NCBI GenBank assembly: GCA_965178125.1
Contig: OZ237743.1
Location: 496,001-560,000, forward strand
DNA from: Bilabrum cf. latius
Taxonomy: Eukaryota
Direction of reading: 5' to 3'
DNA length: 64,000 bases
Below the pieces are notes generated by a model. It saw only the letters and a program-made list of their open reading frames with translations, was not told the DNA's origin and did no database searches. A program made the position numbers and the translations under genes. Within the stretch, counting starts at the first letter, position 1. Each line of letters opens with the position of its first letter. Shown one piece after another: positions 2,969-49,956 of this stretch.

Positions 2969-3031
<63 letters not shown>

Positions 3032-6000: not shown

Positions 6001-8108
6001 TAGTAGCCATGCTGCTGCTGCTGCTGCTGCTGCTGCATAGGCTAGCTCGGCGCGTTTCGGGAAAGAGGAGACTGCATCCTCGTGCCAGTGCCAGTGCCAG
6101 TCCCGGCGTTAGCCACGCCCGACCCCGTGGGTGACGAGGCCCAGCCAATAGCACCAAGCGGGGCACCCCCTTCATCGTACTCTGAACCCCTATCGAACTC
6201 CGTCGGAATTCCCTCCAGAGTCAGGTTTCTCTCCTGCCCCCCATCTATCCGTCGCAACTGCGGGTTCCCGATCGAGTCCCAGTCGATGGCGGGAAGCTCC
6301 GCCTCCTCTCTCTCCGCCTCCTCCTCCTCGCGCAACCGCCTGCTGCGAGCCTCCGCGTCGGCCACCCCCTGCAGGTAGCCGTTGGCCTCGGACATCACCC
6401 GCCAACCGAACCACGTGCCCGCGAGTGCCGCGACCAGCTGCGGCAACACGAACAGGACCTTCACGATCCCGGGCCCCTCAAGCACACAGCCCTCCACGCC
6501 GGGCCGCCACACGCCCGTCGCCCCGGCAAAGATCCCAAATACGATGGTGGACAGCACCCACAGCAGCAAAAAGAACCTGGCGCGAGCGGCAGCGTAGGGC
6601 GCCAGCTTATCCCCCTTTAGCTCAGTGTTGCTCATGGCCTCTTTAAGCATGTCCAGCAGCCAGATCATGACGAGCCTGGCCCCTAGGGCACAGGTCCAGG
6701 CCAGTACGCCCTGGGTGGCGCATCCCCCGCCCACCGTAACCCTGACAGTCACTGCCTTGGCCACGGCCTGAAGCGAAGACGCCACAGCCACCCGTTCGGG
6801 GTCCAGGGCAGTCGCCGAGTCCGCAGTCCACAGAGCATCAGGGGCTACCCCGGCCTGCGATCCGATGCCCGCTTCGATCGTGCAAGCGGGAAGCGGACCC
6901 GGAATCGGAATTCGCCGCGCCGCCTCGCCCTCGGCGGCCGGCAGCCCCGCCTGCATCTCTGCGGCCCAACCTACCCCGGCCGTGTCCCCGAGGGAGTAGT
7001 GGTTCACGCCGCAGCCCGCCGCCCGCAATCCGGATACACCGGGCTGTCCAGTAGCAAACCGGAACACTTCCTCCCGCAGGGCATCGGCGGCTGCGGCGTC
7101 CAGTCCAGAGGAGCCGGGGCGGCCAGCGGATGCGATCCAGCCCACGGCAGCCACCTGTAGCACGCCCCCGACCACTGACGCCACCGGAAACACGATGGAG
7201 GGCCATTTTTTGAACCGATCGTCGGCTGCCATGAGCCGAGCGCCGGCGCAGATGGACGCGATGGCGGCAAGCAGCACGGCGATTGGGACCACCACCATCC
7301 AGGCGTTGATCCACGACGCAAGGGGACCGTCGGTACCATCGGGTCCCGCCCACGCCCAGACACCGTTTTCTAACATGACTTCCTGCCCAGTTTCACCAGA
7401 TCCCGCAAGAACGGCGCCGCTCGGACCGAGCAGGCCGTCCATGTCCTCGGTGCGAGCATTGCTTGGCCGAGAACTGTTTTGCGGCGCCACGCTCCCCTTG
7501 CATCCCTCCAAGACTGCCCGCAAGGCACTCCCATCTCTTCCATCCCAGTGCAAATACTATTTGGTTATTTCTGAAACTGTCCTTCTCGCGTCTGCGAGAG
7601 CTGTGGACCTCGTTGTCGCGGTCTCAGCAGCTGCCACAGCGAGCTCGTTCGGGTCAGGCGACAGCAGCAGCGCGCTGGCACTCCCACCTCCACCCAGCTT
7701 CCATGAAATACAAGACAGATCATGTCTAGCATCGACTTCCACCGTACTTGCCCCGCTGGTCGCCAGCACTATTTGACTGCGAGTTGTGGAGCTACCGAGC
7801 AACTAGGGCTCGCCCCATTCCAACGGACTTGTCGCCGTCTGCAGCTCTGAATGCCTGTCCAGAGCAGCTTGGGAAAGCATAGAGGCATCCAAGCCGAGTG
7901 CACTGATTAGTCCAGGCACCAGGACTACAGATTGCTGTCCAGATGTACCTTGCATCTTCCGTTCAGCCGGGCCACGAACGGCCATTTCGAAGCCCTCTTT
8001 TGCCTTTCTCGGTTCGTTTGCTGTAACGGTCACTACAACAAAAAGTAGCGACAGAATTCCAGCCTTCGGCGAAGCTGCATTAAGCCTAGCCTCCGCACCC
8101 ATCGCCAT
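1..8108 (-). CDS. Very large (>2700 aa, runs off window start) 7TM GPCR-like membrane protein with signal peptide, huge low-complexity loops and polyQ C-terminal tail
   Basis: ORF fragments 7803-8132, 7557-7802, 6042-7553, 5802-5984, 5241-5573, 4182-5186, 3195-4079 and 996-2471 share one frame and each ends in TAG (18 in-frame TAG counted). N-terminus MAMGAE..GILSLLFVVVTVTA is signal-like. Seven hydrophobic segments, a TM3-start motif CATQGVL, a Cys in the loop before TM5, and a Cys cluster after the last helix. Confidence 0.65.
2970..3032 (-). repeat. (CAG)20 polyglutamine tract directly preceded by an in-frame TAG
   Basis: Plus strand (CTG)20 at 2970-3029 followed by CTA at 3030-3032; the minus strand reads TAC TAG CAG CAG... 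Confidence 0.95.
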
Positions 8109-13194: not shown

Positions 13195-16100
13195 TCACGC
13201 CGAGTATTCATTGATGTACTCCCGGTGCATGTCAAAGGCAGCCGGCCAATCGATGCCATCGCTGAATCCAGCCCGGCGCGACCTGCCCCTGCGCCTGCGG
13301 GTCGCCTCTTGTTCCCGTTCCCACAGATCCCGCGCCACGGTCTTGTGCAGGAATAGGTCGTCGTGTGCCCAGGCCAGCTCGCGCACGTATCCTTTCTGCA
13401 GCAGCAGCCTGGTCACGCGCGCTCTCTGCTCCATTTCAAAGTTGTGCTCGATGGCGAGGGCACCGAACTGGAACGAGTCGAAGTCGAACTCGCGCAGAAC
13501 CTCCCACTCGAGCCCTTCAATGTCCAGGGACAGAAAGTGGATGAACGGTGGCGCGTTTGCCTCCCGCAGCACGGATTGCAGAGATTTGGCCCTGATCGTC
13601 CCCGCAGAGAAATCCCTAGTCCACTCCACCGGCGTGCCATCCTCGACCATCTTGCCGATCCCTTCCAGCAGCGACGCGTCCATGTACCGAGCCGTCGCAT
13701 TGATCTGATCTCGCATCGCGCCGGAAGGATAGAACATCGCATACTCTTTGTGCTGCTCGCACGAGGTCATGCCAGCCGCCTTCTGCTCTGCAGTGCACTC
13801 AGTGACATCGGGCGGGCCAAGCAGGGCTCGCACGGCATGGCTGCGGGGACGGAAGTGCTAGATGGACTCGATGCACTCTCGGCGAGCCTCCACCAGGACA
13901 CCGCTCCAGTTGTAGTATCGTTCCATCGCAAGCGTGTTGCTGTAGGCAAGTCCGTCAACCGCCCCCGCTTCCACAAAGAAGCCCCCCCGTAGCCCAGGGT
14001 ACACATGTTCCATCACCCAGCGGTCCTGCCAAATCTGTCCTTTCCATGCCGCAGGCGTGACCGCGCTCTTCCAGATGTGCGGGCTGCCGATCGCCCACGG
14101 AGGCACAGACAGGGGGTCGCGCGGGTCGGTCACCTGGCGGCCGGAAGCTGCAGCGGCCCTGAGCCCTTTCGCCTATGATGCCACGGTCAAGGGGTGCACC
14201 TAGCCCGGGACAAGGAAGACACCGTCCTTGGTTGGCCAGCGAGCCTGCAACGGAACCAGCGGGGGTGCCTGAGTCGCCGATGCCTTCCCGTGCTTGCATG
14301 CGTCAAAGCATCGCTACTATGACATCATGCAGCTGAGGTACTCCCCCAGCCTCGTTGCATCTACCGCCGTGCTGATGTCTTCGACACTCGGGACTCTGAG
14401 ATGCTTTGGCACGGGCTCGCCATTCAGCTGAGGTCCATCGGTGGTGGTCAGTAGCGCGTGGCACCGCTCGCTCCTCTTCCGGATAGAGATGTCTTGCATG
14501 GCGGCGTTTAGCTGCTTTGTCTTGGCCTGGTCTCCGTCAGCCTCAAGGGCTCTAGTGATGACTTGGATGGCATCAGACACGATCGAATCCCACAGCGACG
14601 GGTGCGCTAGTCCCGAGGGCTGGTGGGCAGTGAGAAGTGCGTCTGGCTGGGCAGCCTTCCTCGCGATTGAGGTCCCGAAGATCGCCAGCTCATTCGCAGC
14701 TGCCACTCTTCTTGCGGCGAGCGAGCCTGCTGGTTTCAAATCACCGCGACTGGCCTTGCTCTCCGCCTCTTCAGCATCCGTGCTGTCCTTCAGCATCCGC
14801 GGGACCAGGGCCTCGTTGTCCTCCGGGGTACCGGTCCAGGCGGCCGTCGCAACGAGCGCCGCCAGTGCCCTCTCTACCCCGCTGGTGTCATCAGGGGCAA
14901 CCACGTGCTGGTGTTCACGCAAGGGATAGGATGAATACGTCTCGTAGCGTTCCATTGCGATCGTCCTGAAAAGAAGCGCGGCCGCTCCTGGGGCAGCCGT
15001 CACCCTGCTGAGGAGTCGGGCGGCAGGGTCGATTGGCCCCTGATACCGGCTGCTGGGGCTGTCCACGCCCTGCTGGATGTACTCAAAATACGACTCAATG
15101 ACGCGATCGTCCCCCACCACTCTAGTCGGGTCATTGGTCTTGCCCCCCGGCCTGGGCACGACCAGGTTGTGCTCTCCCTTGCCCTGAGATGCCCTCCTCC
15201 TCTCTAGCAGTCTGCTCTGCCTCGCGCCCCTCAGCTTGTCCCACCGCTGAGACACGATTTCACGGATGCGAGACCCAGACAGCTGCCCGTTTGCCTCCTA
15301 TGCCTCGCGCAGGGTCATCGCAAGGTCTCTGAGAGAGTCGCTGTCGCTGCGTGTCGTGCGCGTGACAGGCACAGCCGAGTCCACTAGATCAAGGAAGGCG
15401 TCAAGCGGGTTGTAAGCACCCTTGACGATTCCGATGCGGGCTGCAGATGCAAGGGCTGCAGCGAGAGGGGATGATACATTAAACACTCGGGGTCTCGAGT
15501 TGAGCACGCTCTGCATTGCGACGAGGGCGGGCCGGCGCGCGGGCCGAGAGCCTCCTTGCTGCTGTGCCTCCATGAACTGGGCGCTGAGACTGGACTGCGG
15601 GCGGTCCAGCGCCCGTCTGTACTCCGGAGACACAAGGGTTTTAGAGAATCCTGATGGATCCGCGTACTCAGGATTCGCCACATGAGACCCGTCGATGGCC
15701 TGGCCGGATTCGCTCAGCGAAGGGCCCTCCAGCTCCGGCGGAAAAACCAATGCAGGTTCCATTTCGATCATGCACGGAGTACACGAGCCATAGTGTGTGG
15801 CATGTCCAACATATGCCGAGATAGCCCACACCGGTGCAATCGGCAAGCAGCTCGCAAGCAGATTAGTCTTCGACGCTGCGCTGCACACATTCTCGTAGTC
15901 TTCGACGACCGCGTCCTTGGCTGCACGTGCAGCGCTTTCCGACAAGTCCAACGAATATCGAAATGCAGGCTGAACCGACCCGGAGAGCACGTTTCGAATT
16001 CCAACAAGCCCTGCTGCCGACTGCGATCCATGGTTCTGGGTGACCCCAGCCAGCTACTGGATCGCAGCTTGCTGTGCTAAAAACCTTCCATCCGACTGGT

Positions 16101-16284
16101 AGGTACTGTGCTATACTGCACCTGTAGCCTGGGTGGCATCATACTGATGCCAGTAGATCTCGGTATCAAAATCGTTGCTCGCAGAAGCGTGATCATTCGC
16201 ACCGGAGGCAATGATCAACTTAGCATGCGTAATTTCCTACAACAGACAAGCTGCAACAGCAACATATGATAGAATAGTACGCAT
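13195..16284 (-). CDS. Secreted/luminal FkbM-like (Methyltransf_21) SAM methyltransferase with long N-terminal region, copy 1
   Basis: Signal peptide MRTILSYVAVAACLL; GQIWQDRWV, GGFFVEAGAVDGLAYSNT, WSGVLVEA, IHFLSLDIEGLEWEVL, AIEHN. One frame with 9 TAG. Ends TGA. Confidence 0.8.
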
Positions 16285-16836: not shown

Positions 16837-16897
16837 AATCCACTGGTGCCTCGGCCGCGCGTTGAATGCAATAACCGGAACTTCGTTGAAACGCCAC

Positions 16898-17200: not shown

Positions 17201-20200
17201 TCACGCCGAGTATTCATTGATGTACTCCCGGTGCATGTCAAAGGCAGCCGGCCAATCGATGCCATCGCTGAATCCAGCCCGGCGCGACCTGCCCCTGCGC
17301 CTGCGGGTCGCCTCTTGTTCCCGTTCCCACAGATCCCGCGCCACGGTCTTGTGCAGGAATAGGTCGTCGTGTGCCCAGGCCAGCTCGCGCACGTATCCTT
17401 TCTGCAGCAGCAGCCTGGTCACGCGCGCTCTCTGCTCCATTTCAAAGTTGTGCTCGATGGCGAGGGCACCGAACTGGAACGAGTCGAAGTCGAACTCGCG
17501 CAGAACCTCCCACTCGAGCCCTTCAATGTCCAGGGACAGAAAGTGGATGAACGGTGGCGCGTTTGCCTCCCGCAGCACGGATTGCAGAGATTTGGCCCTG
17601 ATCGTCCCCGCAGAGAAATCCCTAGTCCACTCCACCGGCGTGCCATCCTCGACCATCTTGCCGATCCCTTCCAGCAGCGACGCGTCCATGTACCGAGCCG
17701 TCGCATTGATCTGATCTCGCATCGCGCCGGAAGGATAGAACATCGCATACTCTTTGTGCTGCTCGCACGAGGTCATGCCAGCCGCCTTCTGCTCTGCAGT
17801 GCACTCAGTGACATCGGGCGGGCCAAGCAGGGCTCGCACGGCATGGCTGCGGGGACGGAAGTGCTAGATGGACTCGATGCACTCTCGGCGAGCCTCCACC
17901 AGGACACCGCTCCAGTTGTAGTATCGTTCCATCGCAAGCGTGTTGCTGTAGGCAAGGCCGTCAACCGCCCCCGCTTCCACAAAGAAGCCCCCCCGTAGCC
18001 CAGGGTACACATGTTCCATCACCCAGCGGTCCTGCCAAATCTGTCCTTTCCATGCCGCAGGCGTGACCGCGCTCTTCCAGATGTGCGGGCTGCCGATCGC
18101 CCACGGAGGCACAGACAGGGGGTCGCGCGGGTCGGTCACCTGGCGGCCGGAAGCTGCAGCGGCCCTGAGCCCTTTCGCCTATGATGCCACGGTCAAGGGG
18201 TGCACCTAGCCCGGGACAAGGAAGACACCGTCCTTGGTTGGCCAGCGAGCCTGCAACGGAACCAGCGGGGGTGCCTGAGTCGCCGATGCCTTCCCGTGCT
18301 TGCATGCGTCAAAGCATCGCTGCTATGACATCATGCAGCTGAGGTACTCCCCCAGCCTCGTTGCATCTACCGCCGTGCTGATGTTTTCGACACTCGGGAC
18401 TCTGAGATGCTTTGGCACGGGCTCGCCATTCAGCTGAGGTCCATCGGTGGTGGTCAGTAGCGCGTGGCACCGCTCGCTCCTCTTCCGGATAGAGATGTCT
18501 TGCATGGCGGCGTTTAGCTGCTTTGTCTTGGCCTGGTCTCCGTCAGCCTCAAGGGCTCTAGTGATGACTTGGATGGCATCAGACACGATCGAATCCCACA
18601 GCGACGGGTGCGCTAGTCCCGAGGGCTGGTAGGCAGTGAGAAGTGCGTCTGGCTGGGCAGCCTTCCTCGCGATTGAGGTCCCGAAGATCGCCAGCTCATT
18701 CGCAGCTGCCACTCTTCTTGCGGCGAGCGAGCCTGCTGGTTTCAAATCACCGCGGCTGGCCTTGCTCTCCGCCTCTTCAGCATCCGTGCTGTCCTTCAGC
18801 ATCCGCGGGACCAGGGCCTCGTTGTCCTCCGGGGTACCGGTCCAGGCGGCCGTCGCAACGAGCGCCGCCAGTGCCCTCTCTACCCCGCTGGTGTCATCAG
18901 GGGCAACCACGTGCTGGTGTTCACGCAAGGGATAGGATGAATACGTCTCGTAGCGTTCCATTGCGATCGTCCTGAAAAGAAGCGCGGCCGCTCCTGGGGC
19001 AGCCGTCACCCTGCTGAGGAGTCGGGCGGCAGGGTCGATTGGCCCCTGATACCGGCTGCTGGGGCTGTCCACGCCCTGCTGGATGTACTCAAAATACGAC
19101 TCAATGACGCGATCGTCCCCCACCACTCTAGTCGGGTCATTGGTCTTGCCCCCCGGCCTGGGCACGACCAGGTTGTGCTCTCCCTTGCCCTGTGATGCCC
19201 TCCTCCTCTCTAGCAGTCTGCTCTGCCTCGCGCCCCTCAGCTTGTCCCACCGCTGAGACACGATTTCACGGATGCGAGACCCAGACAACTGCCCGTTTGC
19301 CTCCTATGCCTCGCGCAGGGTCATCGCAAGGTCTCTGAGTGAGTCGCTGTCGCTGCGTGTCGTGCGCGTGACAGGCACAGCCGAGTCCACTAGATCAAGG
19401 AAGGCGTCAAGCGGGTTGTAAGCACCCTTGACGATTCCGATGCGGGCTGCAGATGCAAGGGCTGCAGCGAGAGGGGATGATACATTAAACACTCGGGGTC
19501 TCGAGTTGAGCACGCTCTGCATTGCGACGAGGGCGGGCCGGCGCGCGGGCCGAGAGCCTCCTTGCTGCTGTGCCTCCATGAACTGGGCGCTGAGACTGGA
19601 CTGCGGGCGGTCCAGCGCCCGTCTGTACTCCGGAGACACAAGGGTTTTAGAGAATCCTGATGGATCCGCGTACTCAGGATTCGCCACATGAGACCCGTCG
19701 ATGGCCTGACCGGATTCGCTCAGCGAAGGGCCCTCCAGCTCCGGCGGAAAAACCAATGCAGGTTCCATTTCGTTCATGCACGGAGTACACGAGCCATAGT
19801 GTGTGGCATGTCCAACATATGCCGAGATAGCCCACACCGGTGCAATCGGCAAGCAGCTCGCAAGCAGATTAGTCTTCGACGCTGCGCTGCACACATTCTC
19901 GTAGTCTTCGACGACCGCGTCCTTGGCTGCACGTGCAGCGCTTTCCGACAAGTCCAACGAATATCGAAATGCAGGCTGAACCGACCCGGAGAGCACGTTT
20001 CGAATTCCAACAAGCCCTGCTGCCGACTGCGATCCATGGTTCTGAGTGACCCCAGCCAGCTACTGGATCGCAGCTTGCTGTGCTAAAAACCTTCCATCCG
20101 ACTGATAGGTACTGTGCTATACTGCACCTGTAGCCTGGGTGGCATCATACTGATGCCAGTATGCGATCTCGGTATCAAAATCGCTGCTCGCAGAAGCGTG

Positions 20201-20293
20201 ATCATTCGCACCGGAGGCAATGATCAACTTAGCATGCGTAATTTCCTACAACAGACAAGCTGCAACAGCAACATATGATAGAATAGTACGCAT
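17201..20293 (-). CDS. Secreted/luminal FkbM-like methyltransferase, copy 2
   Basis: Near-identical to copy 1 at offset 4006 (4009 after a 3-nt in-frame indel near 20161). 8 in-frame TAG. Ends TGA. Confidence 0.8.
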
Positions 20294-20457
20294 GACCAGA
20301 AAATTTGTGGAATGACAGGGGTTTGTACAGGACAACACGCGTTCAATCCACTGGTGCCTCGGCCGCGCGTTGAAAGCAATAACCGGAACTTCTTTGAAAC
20401 GCCACCACGAGTCCGTTCTTGCTCTCTCCCGTGTCGCTATGCAGCATATAACGAGCT

Positions 20458-23400
20458 TCAGCTGAAGTCGCAGGAATACTTGACCGATGTTTTCCCCTTC
20501 TTTACCTTGAGCTTCTGTACAGTGATCCTGCACGCCAGTGCGCCAGATGGTTCCGACTCACCGGGTCCGGTCAAGGCACGAAAGGCCGCCGCAGTAGGCA
20601 CGTGCGTCCCGCCGCATGGACACCCGTTCGAGCTGCTTCCAATGCATACCACCCTGCACGGCCTGTCCTGCGGCAAGTGAGCGCAATCGTCGGCCCCGAG
20701 GCCCACCGCAGCCAGCGCGGCACCGTCCCTTGGATCTACGAGAAGGTCTCGAGTGAGCGCTCCTGCCTCTGCCGCGAAACTCAGCTCGCGGTTCAGCGCA
20801 TCAATGAGCGGTTTCCGCATGGGTGCGGGCACCGCCCCCTGGTACTCAACGAAAGGACCGTCTTCGAAATGATACCCCTTGCCGGGCCGGAGCCCCATGC
20901 CCCTATCAGCGGGCGCCCCCTCGATCGCCTTGCCGTCCACCGGTGGAGCCTGCAGCATGCCCAGCACGCCCATGCAATGGTCTAGCAAGTGACCCCCACT
21001 GTGCAGCAGCATGGCAGACCGCCGACGCCGCACTCCCACGCTCTGCCACACCCCGAGGTTGTCCACCAGGAGAAGTGGGAGGCAGCTGTCGATGGGGTCG
21101 CACGGTGTGGCGCTTTCGGAGCCTGGGCCTTCCAACACCCCAGCGGAAAGTAGGTCACCGCCCGCCTTGTCGCCTGTTCCGTCCATCGCCTCACTAACGC
21201 GCAGTGCCGCTTTGGCTGGCTCCATTTCCCGCACGATGGTAGGTGACTGGCACCACAGCAAGATGCAGCCAGTCAGAGCGTCATCAGCTCCTGCCCCGGG
21301 CTTGCGGGACGCCAACACCGGTAGCACCAAAGTTGTCCTGGGATCCGCACCCCCTTCAAGAGGCATGGCCACTGCAATCGCACCGACGTCAGAAGGCTGG
21401 CCCCCACCCTGTGGGTGGAAGACCGTGGCACTCAGCACCACGCAGAGCTCCGCACCATCGATTGGGCATGCGCCTGCATCCAGCAGCTTTTCGCCCTTTC
21501 CTTTAGCCAAGGAGAGCACTGTACGCGAATCCCCGCTCCCTTCTTTGACTGGTTCCGCGCGCTTGACGAGGCCGGCAGCCAGCACGCATGGAATGGCTCC
21601 CAGGCGATCATCGCCCTCGTCCTGTACAACCTCCGTGCCCTCGCTCACCCCGCTTGTGTCGTGCAAGCTTGGCACGAGGGCCAGCAGCCGCTCGCTGCTG
21701 AGACTGCCATCCGAACCAAGATCAACGCTGCAGTTGCGACCCGCCTCCATGTACACTGGCCGGGTCGACGGCAACTCCGGTGCTGCCGGACCTGCCTCGG
21801 CATCGGACGGCTCGTCTTGTGAACGGCTCGGGTCTGCTGCACCGGTGCCACTGGCAGCTGCCGTGCTACTTGCACTTGGGCTGCTTTCCGTGCTATCCAC
21901 ACGCGGGGCAGCGAGCGATGCCCCGCGGACGGCAATGCCTTTAAGGTCGTCCAGCTCTGCACGCGATAGAGCCCTCGGTACAGCATCACCTCGTATCGCC
22001 CCGGGGTACTCCGTGAGCTCCCTGCCGCGGGCCACCGCTGCCACCAACGATGCAACCGCCGTGAGGATGTCAGAATCCGTTGTAAATCGGCCGCAAGACA
22101 GCCGGATGGTGCTTGCAGCCGCGCCGTCTGGGATCTGCATGGCCTCGAGAACGTGGCTCTTCTTGACTTCAGTCGATGGGCCCGCCGCTTCCGTGGACCC
22201 CGCGGCTGCTTCAGCCTCACTGCCACGGGAAGATTCAGGTTCAGAGCTGTGGCAGGCCGCCCCTGCGCTGGCCGCGACGATATCGTGCACCGCGTGAAGC
22301 AGGCAGGAAGAACGCAGGCCAAGCAGAGCTACGCTGAGGGTGTTTGGCAGGATCTGCCCCGGTGATTTCGGGCCGTGCACCATTACGCCGGCGGCCTTCA
22401 GCTGATCCTGCGAGGGGTTTCCCAGCAGCGCTGCCATGGCTGCTTCTCCTTCGGCGGGAAATGCCGCGGGGTCCATCGAGGTGTAGTAGCTGGAGCTGGA
22501 GCTGGCCGGTCCACCCTATGAGGATGCTGCGACTGCGGCCGCAGCGGCGCGGCGGAGGGACCCGGGGGGAGGGCTGGCCTCGCGGTGGTCCTACGGGAGT
22601 ACCTTGAGCCATTCCCGGCAGCAATTGATGGCAACCTGCGCGGCGATTCGCCAAGCAGGCATTCCATCCACCTCTTGCCCCTCGCGCACTGAGCCCGAGG
22701 CGGCAGGCTGCTCCCCAAGCCCCGCCACCAGCCCACGCATCAGTGCCCAGCGAAGCCGCCTGCAGTGCCACACGTCCTTGGCGAGCTCGTCGCTCGCAAT
22801 CGCGGCGGCTTCTCCAAGGCCCGCGATGAGTGCCACGTTTTCCGTCCCCGCTCTCCGACCGTCTTCCTGCCCACCACCGAAGAAGAGCGGCCGCAGGGGC
22901 GGCTGCGGTTCGGACCCTCGCGATGGTTCGCTTCCAGCTTGCACGCCCCACTTGTGGTACAGTGCGCCAACTCCCTTGGTGCTATAGCACTTGTGACCCG
23001 CCAATGTCAGGTAGTCACAGCCAAGGGCCGCCACGTCAATCGGAGCTTTACCGAAGGCTTGGGATGCGTCGACGTGCACGGAAACTGCATGACCGGCCTC
23101 TTTCGAGCGGAGTTCTCGAACTATCTCAGATATAGGCTGCAAGGCTCCCGACTCGTTGTTTGCCAGCATGATGAAGATGCCTACTGTTTCGGGCCGCACT
23201 GCAGCCATGACCGCGTCGACTTTGACTTGCCCAGACTCGTCGCACGGGACGACAGTTACGGAATGTGCACCCTTGCTCGAGTTAACTATGTGCTCTATCG
23301 TCCTGTGAACCGCTACATGCTCTATAGAGGTCATGATGAAGTGTGAGCTGGACCGCCTCTCAGACACAACCTATGCCACCCAGGCGATCGATTCTGTGCC

Positions 23401-23631
23401 GCCAGATGTGAAAGTCAACGTTTCGCACGGACCGGTCGCTGCGTCACGAAGCAAATTTTTCACAGAGAGGCGAGCTTTGCGAATGGAGTCCTTCGGGGAT
23501 CTACCAAACGCGTGACTAGAGCTTGGATTCCCAAAGTCGCTCTGGTGATCCAGATGTGCCACAATTGCAGAGCGAACTCGAGGATCCACCGGCGTAGTGC
23601 CATTGACATCCAGATAGACTACCCCTGGCAT
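20458..23631 (-). CDS. Fusion: selenocysteine lyase/NifS-type PLP enzyme + AlaX-type aminoacyl-tRNA editing domain (~1057 aa)
   Basis: VYLDVNGTTP, FGNPSSSH, TFTSGGTES, SIEH, MLANNESG, HVDASQ, AGHK (PLP Lys), GGGQEDGRRAGTEN, ASAGAACHS (catalytic Cys), IRLSCGRFTT; then TVFHPQGGGQPSDVG, HSGGH and CPCGGTHV (AlaX Zn motifs). 3 in-frame TAG (23371, 22591, 22516). Ends TGA. Confidence 0.85.
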
Positions 23632-23770
23632 GGCTTCTGCAGTGTTTCTGTGAGGCGTCACCCGGCTGCGGCGTCCAAATCTAGATCGTGTGACGAGCGA
23701 TTGTGAACCAAGAGAGGGATGGATCAGGACAACGCAACACGCTATACGAAAACTAGACCCCATCATGAAT

Positions 23771-26700
23771 TCAATCAGAGCCTCGTGCAGACGCAGCCCC
23801 GGGGCCTGCATCTCGCTGCTGCTGCCGGATCAGCTGCAGCAGGCTGGCCAAGCCCTCGAACACTCCCACCCAGTCCCGGAAGGAGAGCGGCACGCCCTCC
23901 GACCCCTCCTCTCCGTCACCAGAGAAATTAAACAGGATCCCCGCGCATGGTTGCCCATCGATCTGCCCGGGACCGTCGTTCATGCCGGCGTCGGGTGGTC
24001 TCAAGTAGAACTGCCTGCCACGAACCGGCAGCTCGGCCGCAGCCCCAGCACCGGATGACGATGATCCACCCCTCCCAAACACAGAGGAAAAGAATCCTCC
24101 GGCCTTCACAATGGGAAGCTTGTTCTCTGCCACGTCCTTTTCCTCTGATGGAAGCAGGCTCACCTCCAGGGCGCCCTCAAAGCCGCAGCGGTCCTTAGCC
24201 ACCAGCGCGGCGCCAGCTATGAACCGCATCAGGAAGCCCCCCTTGGGGCGAGCGTCGTACTCGTCCGCTTGGTACTTAAGGCTACCTCGCCCCAGCTTTA
24301 TCCACCTCTGTTTCCAGCCAGTCACGGAGGGCTCCCCCTCCCTGTTGATGCCCAGCGTATCCACCTTGTTGCTGCGCCATCGCGATCTAGTGCACTTGTA
24401 GAGGTACCCCTCCAGCCGCGTGGCCCGCTCGACGGAAGCGCCGGAGGAGGAGGCCTGTCGAATGAGCTCTTTGGCAATCTGAACGTGTCTAGACGTCGCT
24501 ACCGCGCACCCAGTGGCTGAGACAGGCGCGGCCGGTGCTGCCTCCTCCCTCGGTACATAGGCAGGAGTGTCGCCACCCTTGGAGCTCACCGAGTCGTCGG
24601 CTGCTGCGGACGATGAAGATGCAGTTCCACCGGTGCTAGCATTGCCGTGGCTTTGAACCGCCGCATCTCCCGCTGCATCGTCCCCTGAATCTGGTGGGAC
24701 TGCCCCTGCAGACGACGGCTGGCCCAGACTTGCCTATATCTTGGCCGAAGCAAATGCGCCTTCCTAGCCGGAGGCTGTCGCAGCGGCAGCAGTAGACGGA
24801 GACGGCTGGCTGAAGGGTGCTGACAGCCCGTTGGTGGAGGCATCAATGCTGCCACCCGCCTCACTCTCTGCGCCTCGCCGCTGCTCACCAGCAGCTGCCG
24901 GCGCAGGTGCCCTGCCCATGAGGATGGCGTCTAGTGCAGCCACAGGCCCCATTGCGCTCTCAATCCGAGAGAGCCTAGCTAGGAACGACTCCATTTCTTT
25001 CACTGCCGCATTTGCCTCAGACGGGCCCACAGCCCCCTCCAGTGCTGGGTTCAGGCCTCCAGTACCCTTGCGAAGCGCAGACAGGAGCACTTGGTACTCG
25101 CGGTCGCGGCGCAGTAGCTGCCTAGCGAGTCGAATGGCACTGGACTCGATGGCTTGGCACTTTTCTCTTAGTCTCCTTATCCTGTGCACTGCCTTGTTGG
25201 CGTAGAGCAGGTGGGTGTTGGCTCGTTCAGTGGTCTTCTCCAGCGAGCCTCTCGCCTCATCGTACCGGTTCCAGAGCTCCAAGACCCCGCTGACCTCCAT
25301 GCCGGATTGGAACAGCTGCTACCACTGCTTGCGGTGCCGCGGCGTATCATCACCTGGTACTGGTGACTGCCCGCCAGCAATGGACTCCGCAGCTCCACCA
25401 CCCGCGGACCCCAGTGCACCAGCTGCCACATGCGGGGACGAAGCAGCATTGTCCCTACCCTGCCCCAAGCCATGCGCCGTGTCTCGGTCAGGCAGCGCCT
25501 CAAATGCCACAGAAAAAGGGTCTGGATCGTCCTGCTGCCCTCGGAGGGAATCATCAAACGCGGCCACCCGCGGATGCTCCGACTCGGACGGAAGAGGCGC
25601 CGTGCCTGCTGCTGACGTGCTCGTGCCTCCGCCGCCCTCGATCTCCTCGGATACCCGCAGTGCCCTGCCACCCCCCACGTCCGATACCTTAGGAAACCGC
25701 ACCTCCTCCAGGGCGCGGGACCATCGGTACCTCGCCAGCGTGTTGTGCACCTGCCGCTGTACCCCGAGCTGCTGCATCTAAGGCGCCTCTCGAACGGCAC
25801 GCGTGCTCAGGACCAGCTGCAGCACGAGCGCCCTCTGCTCCGCCGCCATCCGCATCCTGGCATGGTGCGCCGTCTCCCTCCACGCTACCGCGAGGTCCTT
25901 GGAGCAGCGGCTGGCCTCCGTGCTGGCTGCCTTGGCGGCTCGGCGGGCCCCTTGCAAGGTGGCCACGGCTCGCCTCACCGCATTGGCCACCTCGGCACAG
26001 CACCGCCCCGCGAGGCCCACGTCTCCCGTGCTCACCGCCGTGAATAGCCGCCCCAGCGCAAGGTCCGCCTCCTCCACAGGGTCCTGCCCCCGGATCCCGA
26101 ACACTGACCCTGCCCTGGCGCCGTCTGTCGCCTCTGGCACCTCAGCTGGGGGCTGCTCCGGGTTGCGCGGATGCCTGGCCTCTGGATCCTGCCCTACTGT
26201 GACCGTGTCCCTCCCAGTGGCCAAACTGGCGGCTTGGATGGCAGCGCCTCGGGACACACCGCTATCGAACGCCTGGGCAACGATGTCCCACACTGCGCGA
26301 GATGCCTCCTCGCCCGCCTGTCGGTACTTTCCCACCAAGCCCAGGTCGGAGCTGAGCAGCTGGCGGAAGACGCTCTAGGGCAGCACACCCTTTGTCGGCA
26401 CGTCCACTGGCAGGCCCACGGCCGGTATCGGGCTGTCTGACCCTGCCACCCCAGGGATTGGGATCATCTCGTCCCTGTCCCCGGCCGGGCTCGGACCTTC
26501 GCCGCGGTGTGCACCGGCAATCCGACTGGCAACAGCGAGAGCAGATGTGCGCCTCTCAGCGAGCTGGGCAGGCGAGTCTCCGGGCTGGGCGGCCCCGTCG
26601 GGGACAGGCGCAGGGCTGTTCGTGGCTCCATTCCCGTCGGCTGCGCGCGCCCCAGCCCTCCGCTTGCGGGTCCTCACACCAGATGACGACTTCCAAATCT

Positions 26701-27201
26701 CGGTAGAAGCGTTGGTTGCGGCTGTAGGAGCACCGGCAGCGGTGGGTTGCCCTGTTGGGGCACCACGTCCCGCATCATCTGCAACATCAGCAGTAGCGGC
26801 AGCGGTGGCCTTTTTCAGGGCAAGGTTTCGTTTGGCGCGCGCTGCCGCCCCCGATAGCTTGGATTGAATCGCACGAGCTGCAGCATATCTGCCCAACTTG
26901 TCAGCAAGGGCGGGAACACCAGGCGGCAGGGGCGGGCTGCGGCTGTGACCGCCCGGCTCACTGTCATTCCCACTCCCTGGTTCGCTCACTTCTTGCACAC
27001 CATCCAATCCACTGATCCCCCTCAATTCCGCCTCATCCTCCTCGCCGGCAGTGTTGCGTCTGACCATGAATGACCGGCGAACACGCTTGACGACAGTGCC
27101 TCGAGTCGTCCCACTGCCTCGGGTCGATCGAGGCGGCTTGCTGCCGTCGCGCTTGCGAGCCCGGCTGCCAGACCTTTCCGCTCTGGATTGATCGCTATCA
27201 C

Positions 27202-27233
<32 letters not shown>

Positions 27234-30200
27234 CGTGTTTGGCTGCCATCCCCGGCATCGGAATCACTGCTGAAGCCAGCACTCGGGGACGCGCCCGGGG
27301 TTACCGGTCTGGAGTTGGTGTCAAAGTCCTCTGATCTGCCCGTGGATGCGGTATCAGAGCCACTCGTGTCAGATCCGGCAGAGCTTGCACCCCTGTTACG
27401 CTTCTTGTCTCGCTTGTGTGCATCCCTGCCTTGCATTCTGTGCTTGCGCCCACGGTGCCTCTTGCCAAGGTGCCCCTTCCTGTTGCTGCCAGGGGACGGA
27501 GAGGCGCGACCGCTAGACGCCACTGGTGATTGCACCCCCGCTCTGCGAACAGACTCCATGAGCGCAAATAGGTGATTCGCACCTTGTTGGTCCGTGCTGG
27601 CCTGCCGCGACAGACCAAAGGTCATCTGAGGCAGCACGGACACTCCAGCTGCTGGCGCTTGCCTGCTGGTTTGTCGTCGTTTGGACGCCTCTTTGAGCTG
27701 GGCGGCCAGTCGCATGGTATGCCTCCGGGTCTTTGCGCTCTGCTGCATGGCCTTATCAAGCTACCGCTTCATTCTTTCGATGGCAAGCTCTGACTGCTGC
27801 CTGACCGCCGCCAACGACTCGCTTGCATCCATGCGAGCCGCCTCCAGCGCCAGCCTCAGTCCCTAATTCTCGCGCTCGGCCCGGTCTGCGCGCGCCCTCA
27901 GCTCACCCTCCGTATCTAGTCGGAAGGTGAGCGTGAAAGGCCCCACAGAGGGGACGCCCTCCAGCAATGACTTGACCTGGTCAGCGGTGCGACCCATCGT
28001 GGAGCGTTCGTTGACTGCAGCGAGGCCCAAACCCGGGCGAATGCGCGCCCAGTCGGGCGTGATGTCGTGTGCGTTGTGCATTTCTGCCTGCGTGCGCTGC
28101 CTTGGGTTGAGCCTGTACAGGCTCTCTATGACCACCACACACCTGGGCTACGAGCCCGACGGACCAATCCTCTGCCGCGTCTATGTTGGGCCCTCCACGG
28201 CCACTTTAGCGCTCGCAGTTGCCGATGAGCTGTTGTCCTGTTGTTGCATCGCCATGGGTGGAGGCGCTAGCATCCTCGGGGGCTTTGATTCACTGAGGAG
28301 CTGGGCTTCAGCTGCCGCAACAGAAGCACCGAGGGTATCACTACTAGCTGCTGCTTGTGCCCCATGGTAGCCAGTGGAGCTCGCCAACCGGCTGCCACTG
28401 CCTTCCCCGTTGCTCTTGGAGGAAGAAGACGAGAAGCCTGACACATCGGTTGGCTGTAATAAACTCGCGGATGACGCGGAACGGTCCTGCACTGCCTGCT
28501 CGCGAGGAGCTGCGGTGGCCGGGGCGTCAGCTGCTTGGCTCGCCTGCCACTGTCCGCTGCCCCCTTGTTTCTTCCATGCCCGAGCCCGAGCCGCTTGCCT
28601 TCGTTTGCGCCATGCGTCGCTCTGCTGTGCCGATCCCACCGCAATGGCGACCGGTTGGCCAGCGCCAGTCGCACGCGGGGTGGGCGCAGATGGCCCCTGG
28701 CCAGTGCCATTTCCGATGACTCGCAGGCTGCTTTGAGACCTCTGTGGCGATGCCGGGGGCATTCGAGACCCGAACGTCGCATCCGACGCGAATGACGCGA
28801 ACCTGCGATCTAAGGCACCTCGCGGGGTACTCCCTGCACCGCTTGCATCGCTCGCGCCGCCGCCCAGTGCGGCAGGTCCCAAAGGTAGCGGAGCCATGCT
28901 CGCCGAAGAAACACCCCTCTGCCCCGCGGCGATGGGACTAGCAGCGGGAGAGGAGAGGTGCTTACGCGCCCCAACACCTCCCCGCCTGGCTGCTTTCTGC
29001 TGCTGGAGAGCTTGATGCGCCACGTGATCCCGGTCCGCCTCCACCTGCAGAGCCTCGGGCGAGGCATCGATGACCGATGCAACCGCCCTGTCGGCTATCA
29101 GCGGCAGCCTGCTGGCATCTGCATGCATGTCCCAGCCGTGGCCGGCCCCCGGTTCCCCAAACACGGACAGTCCGGCGGCTCCCCTCTCCATGAACTTGAT
29201 GCCGAGCGGCAGCCCCATGCTCTTGTCGAACGTCACGGTGAAGTCGGGCAGCTGGAGGGCAGAGATGGGGTACTCGTTGATGCCTTGCTCTCCCCCGGGC
29301 AGCTGATCAACAAAATCAGGGCCAGTGTGTCCTTCGGTGCTGCTGTTCCATCGCACTACGGGGCGCACGCTGGCGGTGAGGACACCGTCTGCCTGCTTGC
29401 CCCCGCTCTCATCTTTGAGCACCGACGACAGAAACGTCACGTCAGGGCGCAGCATCGGCGGATCTCGTTTCTAGAGCGGGGCAAGATCGTGCCCCTCGTG
29501 GTGGTTGCTGGCAGTGGCATCGCCCTCCCGGAGCTGGTCCAACACGCGGCTGAGCTGGCTGTGGGACAGCTCGTCGGCAAGCTTGCGATTGAGCCACCGA
29601 ACGCGTTGGCGCAGCTAGTCTCGTTCCATTGACAGTGTTGCTATCGCATTTTCTTCCTCGTGGCTCGGACGAGGTCTGTGATGCTGCCGGCCAGAGGCAC
29701 GCTTCCGGTATCTTGAACGCTTTCCACTGCGTCCAGGGCCTTTTCCGCCTCTTTTCTACCCATTCTATTTGCTTTTCTAAGTTACTGTGCTCTGCCGTTC
29801 GCCACGATCTTCCTCATCTCGATCGGCTGCACCATGAACGGCTACATCGTCTTGAAGTCCCTTGGATGATGCTTCTGAGGACCCCCCAGAAACATGCGCG
29901 GCATCCTGGCTCCCACGAGTTGAAGTGCTGCCTACCATTGCCAACTTGCCTACAATCTTTGCGGCCACACCAGCGAAGGCGGACATAGACAAGCTCTACG
30001 TAGCGGTAAGCCGCCCGGATTTGTCCGCGCCTACTTGATTGGCAGCTGGCGAGGTACTCTGCTAGCCACCTTTACCATGACTCTCGTGCACACTGGTATT
30101 CAACTATTGAGGATTCCGAGCCACCTCATGGGGCTACTTCGAGGCTAACTGGTCCAATGCAGGATCGCCTGGATTCTCGGATACGCCTGGACCTTGGACA

Positions 30201-30373
30201 GACTCATCGCTATCCACTCGGCTCTTGTCTTCTGTATCGGATGATGCATGTTTGCTCTCAAAATACCCCTCTTGAACCTAGACCGCCTTCCCTCCGGTTT
30301 CGACGCGGTGCATCGCTTCTTCCCACAGCGCCTTCTTGGCCTCCTTCTTGTCCTCAAGCCGTGACTCGCTCAT
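23771..30373 (-). CDS. ~2200 aa coiled-coil scaffold with an interrupted PDZ-like domain and C-terminal PH domain
   Basis: Eight ORF fragments in one frame, separated by TAG. Start MSESRLEDKK at 30373. PH motifs LEGYLYKC..GWKQRWIKL..LKYQ..PKGGF..DWVGVF. PDZ-like halves FTVTFDKSMGLPLGIKF and IRPGLGLAAVNERS..GPFTLTFR. Ends TGA. Confidence 0.75.
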
Positions 30374-30553
30374 CGCACCAGCAGTGCGTTCATGCCAATG
30401 GCAGCAGAACTATGATACTGGTTGCTACCGCGCTTCGTTGTACTGCCCAGGACTTGTTAATGCTTGCTGCACCCCACCGCTGCCTTTTTGCCGTCGCATC
30501 ATCACACAGTGCCCGGCCGAATATGGGAATAATTATCCATAGGTGAAGTTCGC

Positions 30554-36248: not shown

Positions 36249-39200
36249 ATGGAGACCACTGCGTGTAAAGGGGCGGGTCCCAATGCACAAGCACCGTTGA
36301 TGCACACGCATTCATTGGCCAGCGTAGGTCCAAAAGTCACCCAAAGTCCCGATATGGTTGGCGAGCACGCAACGGCAACTCCGGGAGCGCTGCCCAAGAG
36401 TGTCCCGACAAAGGCAAGGCTAGATGATTTCGAGCTGGAAAAGGTAGTAGGTCGCGGTGCATATGGCAAAGTACTACTTGTTCGCCTCAAGGGCACCGAG
36501 AGACGCTTCGCAATGAAGGTAATCGAGAAAGCGTTCCTTGCAAAGCCATCACTGGCAGCCTACATGAAGACAGAGCGTGACGTGATGGCAAGGCTGAATC
36601 ACCCGTTCCTCGTCCGATTGTCCATGGCTTTCCAGTCACCTCGACGCCTGTTTTTGGTCATGCCGTTCCTACGGGGAGGCGAGCTGTTTACGAGGCTGCG
36701 CCGAGCGGGACTGCTGATGGAGGACGCGGTCAGGATTTACGCAGCCGAGATGGTGCTGGCCATCCAGTACCTGCACGAACAAGGCATCATACACAGGGAC
36801 CTTAAGCCGGAGAACATTCTGCTGGACGACGAGGGCCACATTCGCATCACGGACTATGGCCTGTGCAAAGTGGTGCCGTCCAAGCGAATCGAGACGAGCA
36901 CCGACGGTGGGGCTATCAACCCCGTACCCGCATCGCCTGCCGCAGCTGCATCCAGCGGCTTGCAAGCCCCAATCATAGCACCTATGACTAGTGCTGGCCA
37001 GGGAGCCCCGAAAGGCTCCTCTTCCTCTCCTGCAGACCCCGAGGACGTCTTGGCAGGGAAGAAGGCACTGGCTGCAAGGCAGGCAGCCGCCCCTGGTGAT
37101 GGCTTGCAGTGCGGTGCACCAAGCCAGAGCGAGAGCGAGAGCATCGCGGCCCATGGTACCGATAGTCCAGTGCGCGACTCCTCCCTGTCCTCTTCCTCCC
37201 CGTCTTCCTCTGGCCACCGCGCGAGGTCGCTGGTCGGCACCGCGGAATACACCGCACCTGAGATGATCCTCACTCACAAGGGCAAGTCGGACGGGTACAG
37301 CAGGGCGGTGGACTGGTGGGCGCTCGGCTGCCTCTTGTTCGAGTTGCTCACCGGGCGGCCCCCATTCCGGGCCAAGTCCGAGAAGAGGCTCTACAGCAAG
37401 ATCCTTCACGACAAGGTGCCCCTTCCCTCGCACGTCTCCGTAGAATGCAGGTCGTTGCTGCGGGGCCTCTTAGAGAAGAGCGTGGAGAGACGGCTGGGCG
37501 GAGGAACAAGCAAGGGGTTCAAGGTCAGGGGGGTGGACGCCATCAAGCAGCACGCGTTCTTTCAGGGGATCGACTGGCTGGCAGTCGAAACGAGGCAGGT
37601 GCCTGCTCCCCTGGGACCGCAAGGAAGCCACGCCAACCCTGAAAGCCCCACCATCCTGCTTGCAGGCTCTTCCAGAGGGGCTGCAAGCAGCACGACCAAG
37701 CAAGGGCCAGGATCGACCGGAGGCCCGCGGCCTGACTCGCCGGCGGCGATGCTGCTGCATGGCTCGGGCGGCGGTGCCACGATCGATGGCGGGCTGCGGA
37801 CGCGATTAGAGGAGAGAGAGGCGGCGAAGGCGTCTCTCACGAAGCACTTCGACGAAGCGTTTGCCAGACTGCCCGTGACGGTGGATGCGGTCACTGAAGA
37901 TGAGATGAATGCTGCTTGCGACGCGCAGGACGCCGAGGAGGAAGCGGCTCGGCAGAAGGCAGCCGCTGCTTGGCACAACAGGAACGGGCGAAACGGAGGG
38001 GGAAACGGTAAGGGCAAGGGGAAGGGCAAGGGGAAGGGGAAAGGGAACAAGGGCGGGAAGAAGAAAGGAAAGGGACCGATTGGAATTGCGGATGGTGCAT
38101 CTGATGCTTCCTCCGTAGCTAGTTCCGCAGCGGGGGAGCAGCCAAACGGCAGGACATCGCCTTGTGCAGACGCGCATGATGCTTCTGGTCCAGGGGCAAT
38201 TCCTGCTCCTGGTGCTATCCCGATTGCAGGCGGTGCTCGAGGACCGGAAGCCTCGTAGCCGACGGACTAGGACGACGAGGAGCTCCCGGCTTTCGAGGGC
38301 TTCAGCTTCGTGGCTGATGACGTGGGCTCGCTCATGGCGCAGGCCAGGGTTAGGGGGATCCGAGAGCAGCGCGAGCTCGACGATGCGGCTGCCAAACTCG
38401 CGCAGGAGAAGGCAAGGCTTCGGTAGGAGGCAGCTGAGAGAGAGAGGCAGATGCAGGCGGAGCGCGAAAGGCAAGAGCAGCAGCGAGCACAGAAAGCGAT
38501 GGAAGACGCCAAGGCGAAATAGGCTGAGCTTGAGAAGCAGCAGCAGCTGCAGCTTGCTACCGAAGAGCTGGCACTTGCATAGAGGCAAGCAGAGGCAGCC
38601 CGCGCGCAAAATGATGTGCGAGCTAGTGCAGCCGCACATGCCTCTACTGGGGCCCGGGCAACACCTGCGAGCAAGGTGCAGCAAGCACGGGACCGCCAGG
38701 TGCAGCCCCAAGGCCAGCGTGGTGGTGCAATCACAGCGCCTCAATCGCGCCGCATGCCCAGCTCACCGTGGGCCCGCGCCTACGTGAAGGCACACGGGGG
38801 TTCCGCATCGCCTGCGGGCAGTGGCACAGCATCAGTTGCGTCTCGGCAGGCCGCAGGATAGACTGCTGCGCGGCCATCGAAGAGTACTGGAGGCAAGTCG
38901 TTCGTGTCTCGAATCGGCAGTGCAGGCCGAGCTGGAACCAAGAGCAGGTAGAAGCAGGCGGTCTCGAAGGGGGCACTCGCAGCGGCGAAGGCATGGTCCT
39001 CTGCGCCTGGCGCAGGCAGTAGCGCTACAGATCAACGAAACCGCGCCTTGGCTACGCGCAAAACGGCACGGGCGCCCGGGGGATCGCCCATAGGGGCATT
39101 GCCGGGGAACCCCTCCTTGACTAGAGCAGGGGCAGCTGTTTCACCGCCCTCTTTGCCTGGGCAGCAGCTGCTCAGCGATAGATCAAGCGAGGCACCCACA

Positions 39201-39899
39201 GTTGGATCGGCACTTGGCGTGCCTTTGCCCTTGCCTGTGTCGAGCACAGTGCCGGCAAGTAGCGGCACAGCTTAGGTTCACGCACCTCAATTCACACTCA
39301 AGGTAGATGCACCTCCGTTCATTCCTTCCAAGCCATAGAATGCTGGGGCAGGTGCAGGTGCAGGTGCAGGTGCAGGTGCAGGTGCAGATGCAGATGCAGG
39401 TGCAGGTGCAGGTGCAGGTGCAGGTGCAGATGCAGATGCAGGTGCAGGTGCAGGTGCAGGTGCTCGCGTGTCCGGCTGGGGCACACCCGCAGGAGTAGGC
39501 AATAGCTCTGCGGTGCTGCCTAGTGGTGTGCATCAGTAGAGCTTCGGTGGCCGAGCAGGAGCTAGCTCTGGCTCTAGTGCTGGGGCGAGTAGCCCTTGGG
39601 GCAGGGCAAGGGCAGGCGCGGGCGGCTTTGCAGCAGGGCTGTCACTAGGTGTTGGACCAAGGCAAGGCGCACTGCAAGCAACCAGGCCAGGATTCTCCCC
39701 TGGTGGTTAGCAAGGCCGATCGGGCAGTAAAGGCACGGACCTGGTTGGTACGCGGACGCCGAAGGATAGACCGGGATAGCCTCCAGGACCCGCAACAGGC
39801 GCTGCTGCCGCTGCGCCTTTCCCCGTGCTGGGCGGGAGGCCCCTTGGAGGCAAGGTCGCTGGTGCTGGAGCATGGGGAGCACGGGGCAGTTGGCGGTGA
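36249..39899 (+). CDS. AGC-family Ser/Thr kinase (S6K/RSK-like) with coiled-coil and low-complexity C-terminal extension
   Basis: GRGAYGKV, FAMK, HRDLKPEN, DYG, GTAEYTAPE, VDWWALG. The AGC hydrophobic motif FEGFSF (38292-38309) lies after two in-frame TAG. 12 TAG in total. Ends TGA. Confidence 0.9.
39347..39462 (+). repeat. (GGTGCA/GATGCA)n hexamer array encoding an (Ala-Gly/Ala-Asp) repeat in the kinase tail
   Basis: Direct reading of the sequence. Confidence 0.9.
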
Positions 39900-49700: not shown

Positions 49701-49829
49701 AACCCCCTTTTCTCGGAGGAATTCAATGATCGCGGCATCGGTTTGCAAAGAGGCAGACACCTGTCTTGCAACGGCACGAATAGCATTTGATACCTAATGT
49801 GCCGACAATTTTGATACGAACGCTTCCAT
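46743..49829 (-). CDS. PUS3: tRNA pseudouridine(38/39) synthase (TruA family, Pus3/Deg1-like)
   Basis: YVALKIAYFG, YSRCGRTDKGVS, FSARFSCGYRVYRY, GSAFLWHQIRC. The conserved C-terminal KPSYQLAPETPLCLHHC and YIPLAR motifs lie beyond in-frame TAGs. 4 TAG. Ends TGA. Confidence 0.9.
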
Positions 49830-49956
49830 ACTACTTGCCTGCGTGTGTTTCTTGCGCTTTGGCAAATATTTGATCCGAGTTGCCTATTTTTCCTACATCA
49901 AACGCGCTGTGAACCACGAATAAGAAAATCGAGTTGCCAATTTGCTTAACAACAGA

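Follow-up and report, generated by a model that had tools for sequence, protein, structure and literature searches.

A gene on the minus strand of a 64,000-nucleotide stretch of DNA from Bilabrum cf. latius (contig OZ237743.1, positions 496,001 to 560,000; hereafter the window) appears, from its sequence, to be one real fusion gene with a bifunctional product. The predicted protein carries an N-terminal pyridoxal phosphate (PLP)-dependent enzyme of the NifS/IscS/selenocysteine lyase (SCLY) type and a C-terminal tRNA-editing domain of the AlaX-M type. It is one member of an undescribed and recurrent protist fusion family. Both domain families are textbook material; the new part is the fusion architecture.

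The gene occupies 20458-23631 and reads as a single frame of 1057 codons followed by a TGA stop at 20458-20460. Read with the standard code, positions 20458 to 23811 of the minus strand contain three open reading frames (ORFs), at 23371-23811, 22591-23367 and 20458-22476 (672 amino acids), which share one frame and whose sole interruptions are three TAG codons (Table 1). The 672-amino-acid ORF spans the C-terminus of the NifS half, with its GAACHS loop, and every AlaX motif without an internal TAG. The boundary between the two halves thus falls within one standard-code ORF, and the fusion junction is safe from any question about the reading of TAG. A preliminary description of this DNA had placed the GAACHS loop and the AlaX motifs in one ORF independent of TAG, and the ORF list together with the motif coordinates bears this out.

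Judged from the reading frames, TAG almost certainly stands for an amino acid throughout the window, and that amino acid is probably glutamine. When TAG was dropped as a stop, ORFs of 2715, 2253, 1660, 1313 amino acids and so on were obtained, which tile the window and do not overlap. Without TAA as a stop the ORFs changed little, and without TGA there were only many mid-sized ORFs, the longest of 941 amino acids. The 15 tiling ORFs contain 100 in-frame TAGs within 16954 codons, and the 13 complete ones end in TGA (12 of 13) or TAA (1 of 13). Pfam domains cross TAGs in the fusion gene, in a pair of FkbM methyltransferase genes, in an ion channel and in RNase P p30. Assignment to glutamine follows from three observations. 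One of the 13 substitutions between the tandem paralogues at 13195-16284 and 17201-20293 is TAG versus CAG. An orthologue fragment at 94% identity, P0160, shows Gln in place of TAG no. 1 (...ESIAWVAQVLSERR...; AWVAQVLSERR). A Gln neighbour is found at 15 of 92 TAG codons (16.3%), close to the 108 of 626 (17.3%) found at Gln codons, and every other residue gives at most 10.8%. The fusion gene also gives clean comparative evidence for TAG read as glutamine in the host organism.

Two of the three TAGs lie within an insertion of about 100 codons. This insertion is read here as a translated low-complexity insert, since intron-free ORFs tile the rest of the window, TAG is sense and the GC content by codon position in the insertion resembles that of coding sequence. 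An in-phase intron is the less likely interpretation, although in-phase GT...AG pairs are present, for example from GT at 22602 to AG at 22408 (195 nucleotides). Contigs of four sequencing runs, probably of DNA, displayed no joints across the gene, and contigs from three separate studies matched the DNA of the gene exactly, with its TAGs. Within the insertion, CCAGCT simple repeats at 22488-22546 match unrelated high-depth contigs in two runs; these matches represent low-complexity DNA and give no evidence of rearrangement.

The start was placed at a Met by comparison with homologues; in 13 of 20 full-length fusions, the corresponding motif lies no more than 12 residues from the Met. Because these 13 begin no more than 12 residues ahead of the NifS domain, they carry no targeting presequence, and the fusion protein is predicted to be probably cytosolic. 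An alternative start is offered by a pair of in-frame ATGs upstream, near 23766. The corresponding extension (23632-23766, minus strand; MMGSSFRIACC...SRFGRRSRVTPHRNTAEA) would add about 45 residues and is basic, Ser/Arg-rich and targeting-peptide-like. The orthologue P0160 retains ...HRNT..AM.GVVYLD in this region.

Table 1. Predicted features of the fusion gene, with examples of other TAG-containing ORFs. Positions are those of the window.
Feature	Position	Strand	Basis or remark
Whole coding sequence	20458-23631	-	Start placed at M of MPGVVYLDVNGTTP
Group-I NifS/IscS/SCLY-type PLP domain, amino acids 1-540	22012-23631	-	Pfam Aminotran_5, PDB matches, motifs
In-frame TAG no. 1, codon 87, within NifS domain	23371-23373	-	Aminotran_5 continues across it
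EHVA	23311-23322	-	Motif placement, upstream of 672-amino-acid ORF
AGHKCY (PLP lysine)	22984-23001	-	Motif placement, upstream of 672-amino-acid ORF
Insertion of ~100 codons, amino acids ~309-408, absent from other fusions	22408-22707	-	Alignment
In-frame TAGs no. 2 and no. 3, codons 347 and 372, both within insertion	22593-22591; 22518-22516	-	DNA
ASAGAACHS	22246-22272	-	Inside 672-amino-acid ORF
Interdomain linker, Ser/Ala/Pro/Glu-rich, low-complexity, amino acids 541-622	21766-22011	-	No family match
AlaX-M-type editing module, amino acids 623-1057	20461-21765	-	Profile, fold
FHPQGGGQPSD	21388-21420	-	Inside 672-amino-acid ORF
HSGGH	20989-21003	-	Inside 672-amino-acid ORF
CPCGGTH	20602-20622	-	Inside 672-amino-acid ORF
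Examples of TAG-containing tiling ORFs	3-8108; 23771-30502; 36249-39899	-; -; +	

The N-terminal half is predicted to be a complete group-I PLP enzyme of the NifS/IscS/SCLY type. On the two upstream pieces, Aminotran_5 (PF00266; gathering cut-off 21.5 bits) matched positions 1-78 with an E value of 4.9e-07 (29.5 bits) and positions 89-270 with an E value of 7e-31 (108 bits). Both pieces are thus above the cut-off, and they are collinear and in the same frame. The N-terminal part of the 672-amino-acid ORF matches cysteine desulfurases of the PDB with E values of 5e-05 to 0.04. When residues 1-545 were compared to the PDB with TAG translated as Gln, the best matches were rat SCLY (E 9e-54) and human SCLY (E 4.1e-51), followed by structures of IscS, NFS1 and NifS (E ~1e-45). 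A NifS profile built from six family members again ranked SCLY first, by a narrow margin (SCLY 5.5e-93, IscS 1e-88). The catalytic set is complete and comprises His105 (EHVA), Asp188 and Gln191 (VHVDASQ), Lys214 (AGHK) and Cys460-His461 (GAACHS), with GGGQE..RAGTEN also present. EH, HVDASQ and AGHK with its Lys214 align with SCLY and IscS. In the window protein, the group-I loop ASAGAACHS precedes an additional insert of about 25 residues.

Mammalian SCLY (3A9X, rat; 3GZC, human) shares IMLANNE(S/T)G, GGGQE..GTEN, LPNT and GAACHS with the window protein, including the His after the Cys, but does not possess a tRNA-editing domain. The two differ at the residue after EH, which is Val106 here and Asp in both mammalian enzymes. 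The PDB alignments therefore confirm what had been noted beforehand, that the EHDS of SCLY is replaced by EHVA. This Asp (D146 of human SCLY) is the determinant of selenocysteine (Sec) specificity. At its position, the 20 full-length fusions have V in nine, P in six, I in three and A in two instances, and D in none.

The view that GAACHS is typical of SCLY-like enzymes proved too narrow. Among the 232 nearest NifS relatives, 227 have a recognisable loop, and 'ACH' is present in 219 of these; relatives with this loop include bacterial standalone enzymes as well as 19 fusions of NifS to SelD. Pro follows EH in 207 of the same 227. For the homologue P0066, the ESM Atlas returned generic cysteine-desulfurase clusters (0.82), and no fused cluster was found there.

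The C-terminal half is assigned, from its sequence and a predicted model, to the AlaX-M-type Zn hydrolase domains, and its GGGQP barrel and Zn motifs are intact. A profile of the AlaX halves of six family members matched Pyrococcus AlaX-M (2e1b) with an E value of 1.7e-09. The GGGQP, HxxxH and CxxxH blocks are collinear between the two, and FHPQGGGQPSD aligns with residues 28-52 of 2e1b. The profile also matches the editing domains of alanyl-tRNA synthetase (AlaRS). The window protein has H877-x3-H881 (HSGGH) and C1006-x3-H1010 (CPCGGTH) as its Zn motifs. The module also holds PGKGYHF..VEY and long disordered inserts. The tRNA_SAD family was detected in all six family members with E values of 0.1 or below (best 3.9e-06). 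AlaXM was the best NCBIfam match of the window protein, and for the compact homologue P0066 (677 amino acids) this match covers positions 1-225 of 234 with an E value of 1.4e-26, below the equivalog cut-off.

An AlphaFold2 model of the AlaX half, made from a 60-row alignment, has a mean predicted local distance difference test (pLDDT) score of 72.6 and a predicted template modelling (pTM) score of 0.73, with a core above 90 and disordered inserts. Foldseek matched this model to AlaRS editing domains (probability 1.00, E 1.2e-10), the matches including entries of AlaRS-tRNA complexes. TMt values were 0.66 and 0.69 for AlaX-M (2e1b and 9iuw), 0.71 for Clostridium AlaX-like 3kew and 0.72-0.78 for AlaX-S; the GGGQP barrel is the feature that parts AlaX-M and AlaX-L from AlaX-S. 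The AlaX-M proteins of Pyrococcus horikoshii (PH0108, 2E1B) and P. furiosus (9IUW) share this barrel and the HxxxH/CxxxH core with the window protein. They also resemble it in having no C-terminal dimerisation domain, the window protein stopping 47 residues past CxxxH. The two differ in that the window AlaX half has about 14-15% identity to AlaX-M, carries some 170 extra residues in disordered inserts and has a PLP enzyme covalently attached to it.

RLHSAGHLLD and PGKGYHF..VEY mark the AlaX module as part of a separate subfamily, which is widespread in bacteria and protists. Standalone members of about 245 amino acids are common in bacteria (Patescibacteria, Nostoc, Actinomadura, Holosporales), with at least 540 confirmed stretches in the scan, and their catalytic AlaX motifs are indistinguishable from those of the fusions. 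A NifS-like ORF within about 6 kb of a prokaryotic gene of this subfamily was seen at one of the 80 loci examined. Two single representatives join the same subfamily to other partners: P0116 (677 amino acids) to an IF-2B/MtnA-like domain (PF01008), and P0118 (1082 amino acids), in which it stands behind TRAPPC13 domains. Each of the two may be a genuine fusion or a merged gene model.

The fusion is not restricted to the window. A comparison of the AlaX-half profile with 1.84 billion representative proteins gave 3564 matches with E values of 0.001 or below. Of the best 150 of these, 30 also contain a NifS domain, as scored with a hidden Markov model for which the NifS halves of three members of the family were used. 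Most fusions are 650-930 amino acids long, with NifS N-terminal and AlaX C-terminal. The linker between the domains differs in length and sequence among homologues. Close orthologues of the window protein, P0001 and P0160, are 83-94% identical to it. In a profile search of a 5.8-billion set, the five top matches were all fusions; P0066 and P0069, among the top matches, are listed in EukProt as 'ORF type: complete', that is, as single transcript ORFs. GHK, the loop Cys, GGGQP, HxxxH and CGGTH are kept in each of the 20 full-length fusions, and His follows the catalytic Cys in 17. On these motifs both halves look active.

The preliminary description had also held that no fusion of this kind had been described. 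In one respect this stands: a full-text literature search, made mostly outside subscription journals, returned no description of a NifS-AlaX fusion. The recurrence documented above argues against a one-off architecture. The fusion may have gone undescribed because the family is nearly invisible in reference databases, its members having been seen in Logan, ENA, JGI and EukProt and none in NCBI or UniRef. For the ten fusion representatives that were checked, the sources were Logan, ENA or JGI assemblies, and an NCBI or UniRef record was found for none of the ten.

Separate phylogenies of the two halves had been proposed as a check, and a core fusion group was recovered in both trees. In the AlaX tree, from which rows P0015 and P0076 were left out for having too few columns, 13 fusions including the window protein form one side of a branch with a support of 90 in the Shimodaira-Hasegawa-like approximate likelihood ratio test (SH-aLRT). 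This group largely overlaps an 11-member group in the maximum-likelihood NifS tree, an agreement that points to joint inheritance of the two halves in the core group. The fusions are clustered in the NifS tree (3 label changes as compared to 17.2 in shuffles) but do not resolve as one clade, and the fusion label requires 5 changes in the AlaX tree. The resolution of both trees is too weak to tell a single origin of the fusion from several. In the NifS tree, the window protein and P0161 lie beside one bird SCLY, the only SCLY sampled, with an SH-aLRT support of 76 and long branches.

Two groups of known proteins resemble the NifS half. Standalone 'cysteine desulfurases' of about 400 amino acids from Pythium, Aphanomyces, Peronospora and Durusdinium have EH(V/I)AV and SAG(A/S)ACHS in common with the fusions and are about 44-45% identical to the central NifS piece of the window protein. 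However, these oomycete and dinoflagellate enzymes contain no AlaX domain, and in the NifS tree they group with bacterial NifS-like proteins, outside the fusion group. The second group comprises fusions of NifS to selenophosphate synthetase (NifS-SPS, or NifS-SelD), which are known from bacteria and some protists (Mariotti et al. 2015, PMC4561486). Their N-terminal NifS-like domain belongs to the same 'SAGAACH' subfamily as the window NifS half, and 19 of them occur among the 120 listed best relatives of the fusion profile. They carry EHPAV, whereas NifS-AlaX fusions mostly carry EHVAV. The partner is selenophosphate synthetase in the one case and an AlaX-M-type domain in the other; the SelD domains PF00586 and PF02769 gave no Pfam match in the window protein. 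NifS-SelD fusions are a precedent for joining this type of NifS to a partner from selenium metabolism.

What the fusion accomplishes can be approached through the chemistry of its families. Cysteine (Cys) or Sec would form an aldimine with PLP on Lys214, and Cys460 of the GAACHS loop would accept sulfur or selenium as a persulfide or selenosulfide, with release of L-alanine. The AlaX half would deacylate mis-acylated tRNA at its Zn site, its probable targets being, by homology, Ser- or Gly-tRNA(Ala). The production of such a protein would entail decoding of the three TAGs as sense, most likely as Gln. Since the fusions and the standalone subfamily do not differ in their AlaX motifs, canonical specificity for Ser/Gly-tRNA(Ala) is the most economical assumption. 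The two activities would then not be chemically coupled, which is the weakest step of this account. Dimer formation is obligate in NifS enzymes, and AlaX-M is devoid of a dimerisation domain. An obligate NifS dimer would provide the otherwise monomeric AlaX-M with a dimeric, co-expressed and cytosolic scaffold beside an enzyme that degrades Sec or Cys. From this analysis, there is about an even chance that the fusion serves co-expression and a dimeric scaffold, with AlaX retaining its canonical specificity.

A number of points count against this account. Some concern the protein itself. The gene model is predicted from DNA, with an uncertain start codon and an uncertain insert of about 100 codons (22408-22707). 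The AlaX half of the window protein taken by itself scores 12-13 bits with tRNA_SAD as compared to a cut-off of 24 and so falls below the Pfam threshold, a shortfall that is attributed to its long insertions. The match to NCBIfam AlaXM (NF040865, an equivalog) has an E value of 3.3e-07 and reaches 30.3 bits, far from the cut-off of 300. About 110 residues of this highly diverged half have pLDDT values below 50, and it sits on a branch of length 1.9 in the AlaX tree. The activities of the family are predicted from sequence. Other points concern the proposed role. A structural reason for the fusion leaves NifS as the recurrent partner unexplained. It likewise leaves unexplained the joint conservation of both active sites, which gives room for a chemical link. 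In addition, the NifS-SelD fusions among the listed NifS relatives (19 of 120) hint at selenium rather than general sulfur metabolism.

Such a chemical link is the substance of the explanation that fares next best, in which proofreading is coupled to recycling. The AlaX half would hydrolyse tRNAs mischarged with Sec or Cys, such as Sec on tRNA-Cys, and the fused lyase would convert the released amino acid to alanine and selenium or sulfur, thereby detoxifying free Sec and recovering selenium. The recurrence of the same partner and the conservation of both active sites together in 20 of 20 fusions would be expected of a coupled pair. The NifS half scores best with mammalian SCLY, and the His after the catalytic Cys (17 of 20 fusions) fits the same relationship. 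Tree support for a link to SCLY is low, however, and the Sec-specifying Asp is replaced by V, I, P or A in all 20 fusions. SCLY is cytosolic and NFS1 mitochondrial, and the absence of a targeting presequence from most fusions agrees with the former. The 'ACH' subfamily is also the source of the NifS domain in NifS-SelD fusions (PMC4561486). On the AlaX side, identity of the motifs with those of standalone bacterial proteins gives no sign of an altered pocket, and the count of one in 80 loci displays no conserved prokaryotic NifS-AlaX neighbourhood. Coupled proofreading and recycling is regarded as unlikely and as speculation.

In its strongest form, this idea would make the protein a dedicated protist safety-and-salvage enzyme for selenium (or sulfur), by which Sec or Cys is stripped from wrongly charged tRNA and then converted to alanine with recovery of selenium or sulfur. 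This is judged quite unlikely. If true, proofreading would be wired directly to the catabolism of the rejected amino acid. To our knowledge, such a coupling has not been described for any editing factor, and we know of no cysteine desulfurase or selenocysteine lyase that touches aminoacyl-tRNA. Free-standing tRNA-editing domains are normally small and have a single function. The fusion described here has been kept across many protist lineages, with both sites conserved in every full-length member, and by Rosetta-stone logic a stable fusion of this kind suggests that translation quality control and the metabolism of sulfur and selenium amino acids are functionally linked.

The AlaX half could instead serve mainly to bring a sulfur- or selenium-mobilising enzyme to tRNA, either for thiolation or selenation of nucleosides or as part of a complex for tRNA(Sec) synthesis; in the boldest form, the PLP enzyme would act on the aminoacyl group while it is bound to tRNA. 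IscS-type enzymes feed tRNA thiolation and mammalian SCLY associates with selenophosphate synthetase, both of which lend this docking role some background. The existence of NifS-SPS fusions and an AlaX fold that binds the acceptor end of tRNA and matches AlaRS-tRNA complex entries are also in keeping with it. However, the Zn ligands and GGGQP are invariant in 20 of 20 fusions, which favours retained hydrolase chemistry over binding alone, and no domain of a thiolation or selenation enzyme was detected in the protein by Pfam and NCBIfam scans. A role mainly in docking is very unlikely. Lastly, that the locus is a pseudogene with stops, comprises two or three separate genes or arose as an artefact of assembly is hardly credible: the standard code does split the NifS domain over three ORFs and the gene is predicted from DNA, but the pieces are all in the same frame, a single standard-code ORF contains the junction, TAG behaves as sense across the window, the sequence is identical in contigs of three studies, and there are two orthologues at 83-94% identity and at least 30 fused relatives.

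The genome around the fusion gene is GC-rich (about 62%), dense in genes and apparently intron-free, and it encodes very long proteins of low complexity and with poly-Q; scans of the 64 kb for tRNAs and Rfam families found nothing. A large TIG/PA14-repeat protein resembling fibrocystin is encoded at 59524-63999 (plus strand), a GTPase of the signal recognition particle receptor alpha type at 56616-58340 (plus strand) and a pseudouridine synthase with long inserts at 46743-49898 (minus strand). These neighbours have no functional link to the fusion. The FkbM pair mentioned above (13195-16284 and 17201-20293, both on the minus strand) consists of near-identical tandem paralogues, which differ by 13 substitutions and one 3-nucleotide indel over about 3.09 kb and encode proteins of about 1030 amino acids with a C-terminal FkbM-type methyltransferase domain. 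Directly downstream of the fusion gene lies an element of about 60 nucleotides (20345-20405), the first 25 nucleotides of which recur at 16837 (16837-16897 by extrapolation). At this element, which is probably a dispersed intergenic repeat, the contigs of three runs branch into alternative continuations and the depth increases.

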